A stretch of 64,000 nt of DNA from Eledone cirrhosa (taxonomy: Eukaryota), in NCBI GenBank assembly GCA_964016885.1, contig OZ024741.1, forward strand, positions 286,192,001 to 286,256,000, written 5' to 3'. The translations under genes were made by a program, and so were the position numbers. Positions 16,527 through 62,002 of the stretch are shown here, piece after piece. Positions within the stretch are counted from its first letter, which is position 1, and each line of letters starts with the position of its first letter. Under the pieces are notes generated by a model, which worked only from the letters and a program-made list of their open reading frames with translations, searched no databases and was not told the origin of the DNA.

Positions 16527-16677
16527 GTTATTCCGGGTTGAATCGGAGGTAACCACAGTAAGTAAGGTACTCAATACATAGCAGAGTATAAAAGTTTGAA
16601 TATAGATGAGATTCTACAGGACTAGAACTGTTTCATTCTTTATAAATCATCAGGATTCCTGATGATTTCTAAAGAAT
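16527..16677 (-). mobile_element. PLE tail + HHR with 21-bp terminal fold-back, inside (TA)n
   Basis: Same family as 41758-41945; CTGATGA..GAAACAG..CTGTA; inverted arms 16635-16655 and 16657-16677. Confidence 0.75.
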
Positions 16678-16689
16678 ATATATATATAA

Positions 16690-16842
16690 GTGTTGCAAGA
16701 CAGGCCGTCTCATTCATTGATACCCTGCTGAGAGATGCCAACATTGATAACATCGATGAACCGAGAAATGTCATGCTGAACAGGGACGATTGGAGAAAGC
16801 ATGCTGAATTTTTGCGAATGTAAACTCGGCCGAAGAAGAGGA
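16690..16842 (+). mobile_element. RTE-like LINE 3' end fragment
   Basis: Translates RQAVSFIDTLLRDANIDNIDEPRNVMLNRDDWRK. Confidence 0.55.
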
Positions 16843-16947
16843 TATATATATATATATACATATATATATATATATATATATACATATATATATATATATA
16901 TATATATATATATATACATATATATATATATATATATATATATATAT

Positions 16948-17490
16948 AATAAAGTTAAATAAAAGTCAAATGATTAAAATTTAGCTTCGTTTATTACTGC
17001 TATATATATTTCAGTGACAGCCATCTTTGGCTGTGACCTCTTCAGGCAGTTTGAATTAGTATGGTATAGACAAGTACATATGTTGTTTAGGTGTATGATA
17101 TTGTCAATACTCTGATATGCCCAGTTCCTTGTTGGGTTGTTAATTCACTGGGGAACTGGAGTCATATATGATATGACTCCAGTTCCCCAGTGAATTAACA
17201 ACCCAACAAGGAACTGGGCATATCAGAGTATTGACAATATCATACACCTAAACAACATATGTACTTGTCTATACCATACTAATTCAAACTGCCTGAAGAG
17301 GTCACAGCCAAAGATGGCTGTCACTGAAATATATATAGCAGTAATAAACGAAGCTAAATTTTAATCATTTGACTTTTATTTAACTTTATTTTACACTACT
17401 CCGGAGTAACCAAACCAACCTGCGCACTTCGTCGAGTGCTCCAGCCTGCATACTGAGGTGTTGGTATACAACCAACATAAACTCAAAATC
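16948..17490 (+). mobile_element. Fold-back PLE insertion: 220-bp apparently perfect inverted arms, 3-nt loop, ~100-nt tail, in (TA)n
   Basis: 16948-17167 is the reverse complement of 17171-17390; HHR in each arm; tail 17391-17490. Confidence 0.85.
17289..17341 (+). ncRNA. Minimal type I hammerhead ribozyme (mirror copy on - strand at ~16997-17049)
   Basis: ctgc-CTGAAGA-stem II (acagcc/ggctgt)-GAAA-TATATA-TA-gcag. Confidence 0.8.
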
Positions 17491-17771
17491 TATATATATA
17501 TATATATATATATATATATATATATATATATATATATATATACATATATATATATATATATACATATATATATATATATATACATATATATATATATATA
17601 CATATATATATATATATACACATATATATATATATATACACATATATATATATATATACATACATATATATACATACATATATATACATACATATATATA
17701 CATACATACATACATATATATACATACATACATATATATACATACATACATATATATACATACATACATAC

Positions 17772-18382
17772 ATATGGTGGCTGCCAACTCGTTTTCGAGT
17801 ACGGCCACTACTTTATATCCATGTAGGAGAACCCCTACCGATGCGCTGAACGAGTGTGACTTTTGAGTCCAGCCAGCGACTTGAAAACTCTGGTACAAAC
17901 ACTACACTTGTGACAATTATTGACACATAGTGCTGGGCCCATGGTACCATGTGACGACAAGTGCAGAGAGATCTCCAGATATAAAGCAATGCCTGTGCCA
18001 TGAAGCTTTTATAGTGAGCAAAGGCACTGCACAAAGCCAGTCCCACTCTCTTAACCAAGATGATATTTACCAAAAAGAAGAACAAGTCAACATCATTGGA
18101 TACCATCAGGGTTGCAGGTGTTATATCAGAGTTTTCCTTCTCCTAGAATTCTGCCTTGACAAAGGCTAAGGGGTCATCTCTCCCGGTGATTTTGGATGGC
18201 CATTGACTCTTAAGAGCTCCTTTGCCCTTTGACAGGTTTTGTTTTTAGTCCTGCAGGATGTCCAAAGTCACCCTCCTCACCAAGAAAACTTGGTGGGGTT
18301 GCCAGTTTAGTCGCCAACGACCCGACCATGAAACAGGTTGTACTGGGATACATGTTACCAGTAGCACCAACTGGTGACCTGA
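17772..18382 (-). mobile_element. ~610-bp non-autonomous retroelement, probably RTE-derived, flanked by (CATA)n
   Basis: Second copy at 8800-9210; the 5' part resembles RTE 5'UTRs (from memory, unverified); no credible ORF. Confidence 0.6.
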
Positions 18383-58438: not shown

Positions 58439-58920
58439 TTAATTTCTAAAGTGTATATTAATTAGGTTTATAATATTTAAAGGTTTTCTCAGTTTATGAT
58501 TACACGATATTATTAATTCCTGTTGCTTATTTAATAGGATATCCTTAGATTTCATTATTTCAAAAAGTTCTTGGGAACATAATCTACATTCATTTCTACT
58601 ATTTTGATAAGGGGTGGCCCTTTTGAGCACACTCCAGGTCAGGTCATATTCTATATTCCTCTTTCTATAACTATTTATTATTTCAGCTAGAGATGTTGTA
58701 TTAGCTAGTGCGGCATTTTTAAAACTATGTTTGTGGGTATTAAATCTTACCTGAAATTTGTTAGAGGTAGCTCTTATATATGAATAAATTGAGTCCTTAG
58801 TGTTAACTTTACATTTATATACTATGTTATTAACAAGGCAATTTCCTTTTAATGGACAGTTTGCCTTGTTTCTACAGTTACAACTTTTCGTGAATCCTGT
58901 ATCTGAGGAGATATTATGGT
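58439..58920 (-). pseudogene. PLE GIY-YIG endonuclease domain (Naiad-type); partial inverted copy at 58943-59218 on +
   Basis: CNCR..CPL.G.C..IVY..YIR(G)AT..RF..H..F..T.LA..W..Y..CRLC..E..LLNK..E..CNH. Confidence 0.85.
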
Positions 58921-60012
58921 TAGTTTGATGTACTGGTGGTATAAACATAGTTTTAAAAATGCCGCACTAGCTAATACAACATCTCTAGCTGAAATAATAA
59001 ATAGTTATAGAAAGAGGAATATAGAATATGACCTGACCTGGAGTGTGCTCAAAAGGGCCACCCCTTATCAAAATAGTAGAAATGAATGTAGATTATGTTC
59101 CCAAGAACTTTTTGAAATAATGAAATCTAAGGATATCCTATTAAATAAGCGACAGGAATTAATAATATCGTGTAATCATAAACTGAGAAAAACCTTTAAA
59201 TATTATAAACCTAATTAATATACACTTTAGAAATTAATTTATAAATTATTTTTAATTTAGTTAACCTATAATTAATATTCTACTACTGATGAACTATATA
59301 ATTCTGCTTTAAAAATTATAAACCTAATTAATATACACTTTAGAAATTAATATAATACTATTTTTAATTTAGTTAACCTATAATTAATATTCTACTACTG
59401 ATGAACTACATAATTTTGCTTTCCTTCTTACAAATATCATTTCCTAAAACTGATACCATTAAGTAAACATATATAATGCTTTAACTTCAGGTTATGACTC
59501 TATGTTCCTTGAAAACTATATATATTTACTATTTCTCACTAATAAATTTAATCCCCCCCCCCCCAATAATTATATGTATATATAAGTGTATATGTGTGTG
59601 TATATATGTGTGTATGTATGTATGTATGCATGTATATATCTATGTATATATATATATATATATATATATATATATATATATATATATATATATATATATG
59701 TATGTGCATATGTATGTATGTATGTATATATATATATATATATATGTGTGTATGTGTGTATATATATGTATATATATGTATATATATAGGTGTATATATA
59801 TATATATATATATATATATATATATATATATACACCTATATATATATATATATATATACACCTATATATATACATATATATACATATATATATGTGTGTA
59901 TGTGTGTGTATGTGTGTATATATATGTATATATATAGGTGTATATATATATATATATATATATATATATATATATATATATATATATATATATATATATA
60001 TATATATATATG

Positions 60013-60880
60013 TCAAGATAAGCAGAACAAGTAAAATTCAACCAATTTTTCAAAATAAATCAAAATTAATATACAATTAAAATTAATCAAAATTAAAAAA
60101 TATAATATAAATATTTGCCTATTCAAATGGCCCTAACTGTACAGTTTCACGTTGCAAAACATTAGATATCACACGGATATTAATGGAAAAGCAAAGATCA
60201 TCAGAGAAGCATTTTCCTTTCCTAGGGTTAAAAACCCCAGGAACGATAAAATATGTGACCTCACTCCAACTAATACAGGTCTGAAAGGTCGTTAAAGTGA
60301 CCCATAAATACGTTGGTGTATAGTGAAGGCGGGAAATCGTAGACTTGTTGTCTATGATAGCTACCAAAAAAAAATGTTGACCAGCTAGATAGAACGACAG
60401 GATTTTTCTCTACATAATTGGAGAATATTGAATAAGGTTAATATATATCTGAGGGTACAATGTATCCCCGGAAATATATAGGGTGTCTATGATTTAAGGT
60501 GGTTCTATGGTAATAATTTGATATACCAGAACATAATATCAAGATAAGCAGAACAAGTAAAATTCAACCAATTTTTCAAAATAAATCAAAATTAATATAC
60601 AATTAAAATTAAAAAATATAATATAAATATTTACCTATTCAAATGGCCCTAACTGTACAGTTTCACGTTGCAAAACATTAGATATCACACGGATATTAAT
60701 GGAAAAGCAAAGATCATTGAGAGAAGCATTTTCCTTTCCTAGGGTTAAAAACCCCAGGAACGATAAAATATGTGACCTCACTCCAACTAATACAGGTCTG
60801 AAAGGTCGTGAAAGTGACCCATAAATACGTTGCTGTATAGTGAAGGCGGGAAATATTTCCGGGGATACATTGTAACCTTA
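60013..60880 (-). mobile_element. Nested PLE with tandem pLTR-like direct repeats (60013-60336 and 60539-60853)
   Basis: HHR 60131-60208: ttct-CTGATGA..ttgc/gcaa..GAAA-CTGTACAG-TT-aggg; core mutated in the second copy. Confidence 0.75.
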
Positions 60881-61605
60881 TATATATATATATATGTGTG
60901 TGTATGTGTATATATATGTATATATATATATATGTTATATATGTATAAGTATATATATATATATATATTATTTTTATATTCTTTTAATTTTCCCTCATCT
61001 TTAACAGCACTTTTCAACTGCATCTAACTCTTATTTATCATATCTATATGTATTAGTATAATTTTATCAATATAAATATACCCATCAATTAAATTAATTT
61101 ATATTCTTTTCATAGATGTATTTTTTTCACTAACATTCTTATCTTAAAACTTTAGTCACCTTAGATATTTGTACTGGCATTACTATTTTATAACAGCAAC
61201 TGCTTGTATACCTTTTATTGACCACCTGACCTATTTTCACCCCTAAAATAAGCTTCAATTACTACTATTTTACCATTTGGCCAATTATTAACTTTCTATT
61301 GCTTAATTCTAAACCTCTTACCAAACAGACAGAATATATTAGATCTTTGTTGGTTTTATTCAATGAACAAATAAAATTATTTCTGAGGTCAACATAAGAC
61401 CTATTTCTTCCCTAAAATAATCCTTCATTCATAATATTCTTTTCCATCCAAAACTGAAATCTACCTTCCTCTACCCATAATTTAAGGTTCTTCTACTACT
61501 ATATTACTATCCTGACCCTCACTATCTCTCTATTGGTCAATTCAAAACCTGTTCCCAAACAGACCTATTGTATTGAATCTTTGTTTTTTTTCAATAAACA
61601 AATAT

Positions 61606-61745
61606 CATTATTTCTGAAGACAGCATATATATGTGTAGGTATGTATATTCCCTCTGATAGTTTGTATAAATATTGTACATAGATCTATAGAATATGCATA
61701 CCAACTCTAACACATATATATCCTAGAAACGATCGTAAAATGATG
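61606..61745 (+). ncRNA. Hammerhead with 105-nt stem II (mirror at ~56946-57085 on -)
   Basis: cattattt-CTGAAGA-[105 nt]-GAAA-CGATCG-TA-aaatgatg. Confidence 0.75.
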
Positions 61746-62002
61746 AATTTTTTTAATATAAGGAACTGTTTCTTTGTTTATTCATTATTTTATTAATTTA
61801 TCTTGACTCTGTTTTCCGTTTATTTTTCACCGAAAGTAGTTTTTGAATGCATCTTCTCTTTTCATGATATTCGGATTACATTGAGTTCTTCATACGGATT
61901 GGACACTACCGTAAACTTTTGGTAGATTTATCTACATATATATATATATATATATATATATATATATATATATATATATATATATATATATATATATATA
62001 AT

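Follow-up and report, generated by a model that had tools for sequence, protein, structure and literature searches.

A 64,000-nucleotide (nt) stretch of the Eledone cirrhosa genome (assembly GCA_964016885.1, contig OZ024741.1, positions 286,192,001 to 286,256,000 of the forward strand; hereafter, the window) contains eight inverted repeats, each with a one-sided, unpaired tail. These hairpins are 5'-truncated insertions of Penelope-like elements (PLEs) at (TA)n microsatellites, in a layout that has been described previously. Based on their two fixed ends and on the relative lengths of their arms, each hairpin probably consists of two complementary DNAs (cDNAs) that were primed on the two cut strands of the target and joined head to head.

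All eight inverted repeats reported in the initial annotation were recovered at their positions, with arms spanning about 19 bp to about 1.8 kb as claimed. Self-alignment of the window with microsatellites masked grouped them into six families, in line with the earlier estimate of about six: A (locus 16948), B (16527 and 41758), C (29964), D (31861 and 39186), E (30302), and F (56894). The shared design of a fold-back with a tail applies throughout, but 16527, 30302, and 39186 are reversed, with the tail on the left. Most tails lead into (TA)n as described, except that the tail of 29964 ends in (CA)n and that 30302 and 31861 abut with no (TA)n between them. Tails of 65-180 nt had been listed; the 180-nt tail of 30302 is in fact made up of the family tail (133 nt) and, at the far end, a re-inverted piece of 36 nt. 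The eight loci do not form the proposed size-graded series, as they represent unrelated families that are each variably 5'-truncated.

Hammerhead motifs and inverted repeats were surveyed over 264 kb (the window with 100 kb of flanking sequence to either side), and the families were followed across this 3.0-Gb, microsatellite-rich genome. For each family, the 30 best-matching loci of 40 scored were sampled, and selected loci were extended outward. Arm-length counts rest on families E and F, since the A, B, C, and D samples were query-selected (with A and B biased toward the 5' end of the query) and the automatic junction scoring of B, C, and D contains false matches. For A and B, DNA searches with the tail by itself gave no matches, probably because very common words are skipped. 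We placed 27 of 30 F loci and 30 of 30 E loci on real long copies, for a total of 57; the F loci omitted were the window copy and two matches within one complex locus. Exact motif matches genome-wide numbered 7,922 (A), 5,238 (B), and 4,043 (F), which are counts of matches rather than of elements and, for B, take in tandem arrays.

The proposal that these hairpins are PLE insertion products rather than miniature inverted-repeat transposable elements (MITEs) was upheld: five of the six families link to a PLE endonuclease open reading frame (ORF), and apex junctions vary by copy. The predicted linkage to masters encoding both reverse transcriptase (RT) and endonuclease extends to RT sequence in four of these five. 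Extended copies of family F have open frames of 709-834 amino acids with RT motifs and a C-terminal endonuclease, family E has a 552-amino-acid frame running from RT through the endonuclease, and the family B tail continues into the ORF start, with a 417-amino-acid RT-endonuclease frame. Long copies of family A contain RT thumb and endonuclease sequence detected by tblastn, and family D has a thumb/endonuclease frame alone. No master was found for family C, for which the longest of 30 copies reaches only about 290 nt from the tail end; it has the layout, a hammerhead ribozyme motif, and the tail box in common with the other families. The family F unit measures 4,254 nt from hammerhead to hammerhead, and one locus (L231) has a direct 964-bp pseudo-long terminal repeat (pLTR) in partial tandem. 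A different PLE family (YVDD, GET-type endonuclease) sits within or beside family F copies at L232 and L237.

By motif rather than by tree, the elements appear to belong to the Hydra clade, as judged by DKT, RWR, a CxCx5C linker, and CxxC/CxH around E and N. Family F carries SDKTGN, RWRAY, CNCRNKANC, and CRLC..E..N..CNH, and the same linker and C-terminal motifs occur in E, B, and A, with RWR in place of RWK. A first guess of the Nematis/Neptune clade was replaced by Hydra after this motif check. Because Pfam and PDB searches recognise neither RT nor endonuclease, the endonuclease assignment is based on linkage to the RT ORF together with the Hydra-type motifs: Pfam gave a sub-threshold GIY-YIG match for B only and no RT match, and a PDB sequence search recognised neither domain. 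The two largest window loci, annotated as carrying GIY-YIG coding sequence, do contain C-terminal endonuclease coding sequence, but Pfam makes no GIY-YIG call there. One protein homologue is named 'predicted GIY-YIG superfamily endonuclease', and the homologues with names are from Argonauta and Octopus.

Two other identities were considered and rejected. Families A and B are not stand-alone non-autonomous elements, since their long copies lead to ORFs. Each window locus is one fold-back of an element with coding capacity, and the loci are not retrozymes of the type without long terminal repeats, which are defined as non-coding tandem units with a hammerhead in each (bioRxiv 10.64898/2026.07.22.740005; here and below, statements on published work refer to the available portions of the texts cited). 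Separately, a family B tandem array at L381-L382 (G000:C1:83.68-83.69 Mb) comprises at least 11 units of about 1.07 kb with the family B pLTR, hammerhead, tail, and microsatellite in a retrozyme-like layout, and the strand skew of the B motif count (3659 vs 1579) suggests a larger array elsewhere.

In every family, the end of the tail (the outer site) and the outer end of the inverted arm (the inner site) are both fixed, and they are separated by about 99, 69, 70, 92, 133, and 137 nt in A through F, respectively (range 67-137 nt). At the inner site of family F (n = 47), 23 segments switch to TA at a fixed base, 23 read through, and 1 is of another kind; the pattern is similar in A, B, D, and E. 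Solo copies stop at either site (inner-site examples are L233, L271, and L093), and in some fold-backs both arms are tailed (L049, L327, L131, and L157/L162). These family-specific ends recur over dozens of loci on many contigs, and an asymmetric TA arrangement of this kind is seen at 28 of the 77 inverted repeats within the 264 kb. Enrichment of (TA)n flanks, suggested earlier as a check, was confirmed, with (TA)n following 168 of 180 family tail ends compared to a background of 5.7%. The two fixed ends explain the one-sided tail, and both map to the two start-site positions expected for priming on a sense RNA.

We then compared the reach of the two arms. The 57 mapped E and F loci include 37 fold-backs, 17 copies without an inverted arm, and 3 with another type of inversion. 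In 14 of the fold-backs (F 9, E 5), the tail-less arm extends beyond the tail-bearing arm on the 5' side, by up to 3.4 kb; the tail-bearing arm is longer in 18 (F 6, E 12), and the arms are equal within 20 nt in 5. Within the window, the tail-less arm is the longer one at six of the eight loci, with differences of 2-317 nt, and the same asymmetry was observed in family A at L405 (about 2.6 kb) and in family D at L244. Because it often holds extra 5' sequence, the tail-less arm is not a simple copy of the tail-bearing arm, barring later one-sided deletion; the "stereotyped snap-back" of the initial annotation finds no support in its stated form. An L1-like, non-overlapping pattern was detected at 2 of the 57 loci (L326 and L338).

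Apex junctions differ from copy to copy, often with filler. In family A, where the junction sample was selected for a full tail arm, both arms lie within 1 nt of the 5' end in 16 of 24 scored fold-backs, and in 8 of those 16 both arms keep the complete end, separated by 1-47 nt of filler. Only 2 of the 24 use the junction expected from snap-back on the element's own 5' hairpin.

In the two-cDNA reading, which we consider probable, the element protein would cut both strands within (TA)n. One strand would start reverse transcription at the outer site to give the tail-bearing arm, and the other would start at the inner site to give the tail-less arm. A single RNA or a single source locus would mostly serve for both cDNAs; each cDNA would stop at its own point, and host end-joining would seal the apex. 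A small RCTC...GAGY hairpin 4-9 nt past the inner end would position the inner start site, and the shortest family A copies would derive from a capped RNA begun inside the pLTR.

Several observations weigh against this reading. Alleles and some private variants are common to both arms, which points to one template or source: discordant subfamily-allele sites between arms number 3 in F vs 14.9 expected for random partners and 5 in E vs 16.8 expected, family B arms are discordant in 1 of 28 pairs, and in F, 10 private variants are in both arms vs 113 in one arm only. Such sharing is also what copying a single cDNA would give. One-sided deletions at the centre of long palindromes could, following a snap-back, leave the tail-less arm as the longer one. 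Beyond the outer end, a second box, checked in B and F, is clear in F (+7) and weak in B (+11 to +12), the family A 5' hot spot described below lies at self-complementary sequence (TCATATGA), no master was found for family C, and the in vitro evidence for two starts comes from a different clade with a 30-40 nt tail.

In an extended form of snap-back, a cDNA begun at the outer site would fold back at its 3' end and be copied as far as the inner site, and the resulting palindrome would later lose a block from one side of its centre. This model would account for the subfamily alleles and some private alleles common to both arms. A few near-perfect palindrome or own-5'-hairpin junctions (L001, L010, L046, and L057) are also in its favor, and palindromic junctions have been read as self-priming (PMC3846280). 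However, under this model 14 of 37 fold-backs would have lost up to 3.4 kb from one side, and it leaves unexplained both the solo copies that end at the inner site and the eight family A junctions that keep both terminal bases with filler. We regard it as unlikely, though deserving of serious attention. Self-priming on an antisense transcript, with a hairpin DNA/RNA intermediate resolved by the endonuclease at a fixed site to leave the tail, was proposed for rotifer Penelopes (PMC3846280), and the tail has been ascribed to endonuclease-mediated resolution (PMC8557442). We find this route improbable here, as both ends sit at start sites expected of sense-RNA priming, and the additional G with which family A copies begin (C in 9 of 9 read-through segments) fits a capped sense RNA. 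Finally, although one B junction recurs in many query-selected copies and no short read bridging the F apex at 58942/58943 was recorded in four runs (runs that may lack the insertion and in which other copies dominate), an origin as MITEs or foldback DNA transposons copied from palindromic masters, or as sequencing or assembly artefacts that create fold-backs, is very hard to reconcile with repeats that are not terminal and have a one-sided tail, apexes that are specific to each copy, arms that run into PLE RT/endonuclease ORFs, differ by about 1-14% and, in one F copy, include an 870-nt insertion absent from the other arm, and family-specific fixed ends at dozens of loci on many contigs. Most short reads aligned at 15800-18350 and 58880-59010 derived from other copies of the families.

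Returning to two-ended priming, we looked past the inner end for a candidate start signal. An RCTC box is present 4-7 nt past the inner end in all six families, with a downstream GAGY partner. A TA-anchored fold-back search over all sampled loci gave 254 tailed matches in 63 clusters, and outside families A-F, RCTC occurs at +3 to +11 in 22 of 50 clusters compared to a background of 4.5%. The R and Y positions covary, with ACTC/GAGT or GCTC/GAGC pairs agreeing in 17 of 19 clusters (Fisher p=0.001), although cluster p values overstate independence since clusters may be related. The covarying RCTC...GAGY hairpin may set the inner start site. A literature search that covered few subscription papers and no supplements, and is not proof of novelty, found no paper on the arm-length asymmetry or on this hairpin.

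Family A copies pile up at ATATGAC. The base before this sequence is C in all nine read-through segments and mostly G in copies that end there, including the tail-less arms of nine separate loci. Copying of a 5' cap adds a non-templated G, as in L1 and processed pseudogenes. The non-templated G suggests that a short capped RNA begun inside the pLTR is the source of these copies. The extra G is absent in D, and in B the G is templated. The capped-RNA interpretation is weakened by the palindrome at the family A hot spot, since self-complementary sequence is cited in the published self-priming model (PMC3846280).

A type I hammerhead descriptor gave 22 matches in the 264 kb compared to a mean of 0.05 over 20 shuffles. 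It matched at 17293, 17045, 32139, 39402, and 39378, and the family F hammerhead was recognised by its fold. A canonical pLTR hammerhead is present in A, B, C, D, and F but not in E, where CUGAnGA was found at the homologous place in 0 of 60 segments examined. The initial annotation put a hammerhead in the sense (tail-bearing) arm of every locus; both core boxes are indeed there at 16527, 16948, 31861, 39186, and 56894 (5/8) but not at the other three, with the arm of 41758 starting inside CUGAUGA and that of 29964 retaining the GAAA/stem III half only. Minimal hammerheads, which it gave as a feature of PLEs in general, do not describe B (3-bp stem III with an 8-nt loop), C (branched stem II), or F (stem II of about 105 nt). 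Stem III is palindromic in A, D, and F. No hammerhead family was among the 150 of 273 Rfam matches listed, which were mostly microsatellites against microRNA models and all below the gathering score.

Among 30 F loci selected on the ORF start, 4 begin 1-12 nt after the predicted cut and most run across it. Hammerhead cleavage was therefore rejected as the main source of 5' ends, and predicted cleavage is at most a minor one. Family E has spread without a hammerhead core, and the hammerhead is pLTR cargo that is probably not needed to make the hairpin. The 36-nt re-inverted family E piece at 31825-31860 begins at the position homologous to the hammerhead cut, even though E has no catalytic core. 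Two extra solo stubs consisting of a hammerhead and tail and ending at (TA)n were noted in the window (16360-16478 and 56481-56700).

Degenerate TA/TG/TATG tracts belong to the elements themselves in families B (about 2 kb) and F, as indicated by idiosyncratic features common to copies (L388:6250-8600; L354-L372 upstream; window 57711-58085 and 59571-60979). Other elements are inserted in these tracts, and B and F elements may thus spread the microsatellites that they target. A joint scheme would have one RNA copied twice onto both nicked (TA)n strands from two starts, at least the inner one fixed a few bases 5' of the RCTC...GAGY hairpin as a template boundary, with the shortest stubs coming from pLTR-started capped RNAs and element TA/TG tracts seeding new targets. 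We put this combination forward tentatively, at rather less than an even chance. If true, kilobase TA/TG tracts in element 3' regions would be what makes this genome so dense in microsatellites and hairpins.

Transcripts of the window loci are predicted to fold strongly. Cephalopods have extensive RNA editing, and it is plausible that these hairpins are a source of long double-stranded RNA in a heavily editing animal; the roles as siRNA or A-to-I editing substrates proposed in the initial annotation are conjectural. There was no A>G excess in the window copies, and among 672 family segments screened, only L386 and L310 were flagged for A>G, both weakly. One family B fold-back (L386:4427-5295) has five A>G changes in both arms that occur in no other sampled copy, with a few more in one arm only, as might be expected if both arms had been copied from an RNA template with light editing.

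How PLEs make inverted, tailed insertions is a named open question (PMC8557442). The young, high-copy families described here, with intact ORFs and base-exact ends, lead to a model of two start sites, two strands, and one RNA, with the RCTC...GAGY hairpin as a candidate RNA signal. For annotation, the fold-back hairpins should be labelled PLE ends rather than MITEs or microRNA precursors. Collectively, these data place a known layout in new Hydra-type families and provide useful genomic evidence for two-ended priming over simple snap-back, with modest mechanistic value.

Table 1. Components of the eight fold-back loci in window coordinates.
Feature	Position	Strand	Remarks
Family B tail (about 67 nt from inner to outer site)	16527..16591	-	(AT)n at 16479-16525
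Family B tail-bearing arm	16592..16653	-	CUGAUGA...GAAA core, stem III, GUA site
Family B short inverted arm	16654..16677	+	GATTC apex plus about 19 bp; stops early in (AT)6
Family A inverted tail-less arm	16948..17167	-	Full hammerhead on minus strand; (AT)n at 16842-16948
Family A tail-bearing arm	17170..17393	+	Begins at 5' hot spot G-ATATGAC; hammerhead core 17293-17337
Family A tail (97-99 nt)	17394..17490	+	RCTC box 17398, then (TA)n
Family C inverted arm	29965..30061	-	Hammerhead core without 5' strand of stem I
Family C tail-bearing arm	30062..30140	+	Hammerhead 3' half only
Family C tail (about 68-72 nt)	30141..30208	+	Box mutated in this copy, then (CA)n
Family E tail (about 133 nt)	30302..30433	-	(TA)14 at 30274-30301
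Family E tail-bearing arm	30434..30994	-	Degenerate hammerhead; GAAA-CGGTCG-TA kept, CUGAnGA absent
Family E inverted arm	30995..31826	+	317 nt longer at apex; endonuclease C-terminus about 30998-31156
Family E 36-nt re-inverted piece	31825..31860	-	Adjoins family D
Family D inverted arm	31861..32041	-	Then 15-nt filler 32042-32056
Family D tail-bearing arm	32057..32236	+	Hammerhead core 32139-32188
Family D tail (about 92 nt)	32237..32331	+	RCTC box 32247, then (AT)n
Family D second copy, tail	39186..39277	-	(TA)n at 38982-39185
Family D second copy, tail-bearing arm	39278..39384	-	With hammerhead
Family D second copy, inverted arm	39379..39503	+	With hammerhead; 16 nt longer at apex, then (AT)n
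Family B inverted arm	41759..41819	-	Whole CUGAUGA kept
Family B tail-bearing arm	41819..41877	+	First base inside CUGAUGA
Family B tail	41878..41945	+	RCTC box 41883, then (TA)n
Family F inverted arm	56895..58942	-	210 nt longer at apex
Within family F inverted arm			Endonuclease domain 58439-58942, TA/TG tract belonging to the element, hammerhead-bearing pLTR
Family F tail-bearing arm	58943..61796	+	Hammerhead with long stem II at about 61604-61748
Later insertion in TA tract of one F arm only	60012..60878	-	Partial tandem, 326-bp direct repeat, hammerhead-like motif
Family F tail (137 nt)	61797..61935	+	RCTC box 61806, then (AT)n

Several other repeats were observed in the window. In the partial-tandem element at 60012-60878, the core of one unit's hammerhead-like motif is mutated. 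Another fold-back family at 32897-33990, with 122-bp arms and the tail on the left, is interleaved with repeats that end in a hairpin followed by CTAG, resembling a Helitron 3' end. The 160-bp terminal inverted repeats at 20973-21704 have no tail and likely belong to a true MITE-type element, which offers a useful contrast. Three minus-strand copies of a long interspersed nuclear element (23601-27715, 42594-48112, and 49982-52382) have endonuclease and RT frames of up to 783 amino acids, with a 597-amino-acid upstream frame, and are L1/Tx1-like by appearance. A 411-bp repeat at 8800-9210 and 17773-18183 (98% identity) has very high read depth and lies within TA/TACA tracts.

With respect to known systems, L1 twin priming also involves priming by both target strands on element RNA and results in an inverted 5' segment. 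In that case, the segments do not overlap and the priming points vary, whereas the arms described here overlap and the second start is fixed. A close match is the Hydra clade of PLEs, which have a C-terminal endonuclease and insert into (TA)n (Craig et al. 2021, PMC8557442); an inverted 5'-truncated copy with a one-sided tail has been described for PLEs generally (PMC8557442, PMC3846280). The families studied here share with the Hydra clade a single RT-endonuclease ORF, DKT, an RWK-like motif, the CxCx5C linker, CxxC/CxH, and no CCHH, as well as (TA)n insertion, a pLTR hammerhead, the inverted 5'-truncated copy, and the one-sided tail (PMC8557442). They differ from its description in that the octopod family F unit, at 4,254 nt, exceeds the '<3 kb' given for the clade, tails are 67-137 nt rather than 30-40 nt, and family E is without a hammerhead core (PMC8557442); the units are longer here because of long microsatellite-rich 3' regions. 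The repeat annotation of Octopus vulgaris lists active Penelope-like families, and no description of hairpins was found in the available part of that source (PMC13282606). As in metazoan PLE hammerheads, the pLTR motifs are of type I and number in the thousands genome-wide, with a palindromic stem III in A, D, and F (Cervera and De la Pena 2014, PMC4209133), although the predicted motifs here are not all minimal (B, C, and F).

For Poseidon PAc of Anolis, both strands were cut and extended in vitro, with two internal RT starts bounding the tail (Frangieh et al. 2024, PMC11167929). Two start sites and AT-rich targets are features in common with our families, and hammerhead cleavage was dispensable in that system. 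Poseidon PAc belongs to another clade, has a short tail, and uses an AC-rich stem-loop at the start site, and the available text does not address the joining of inverted fold-back insertions (PMC11167929). Penelopes of Adineta vaga share the head-to-head inverted pLTR, optional tail, and palindromic junctions (PMC3846280). Unlike the antisense self-priming proposed for those elements, the arm lengths observed here favor two priming events.

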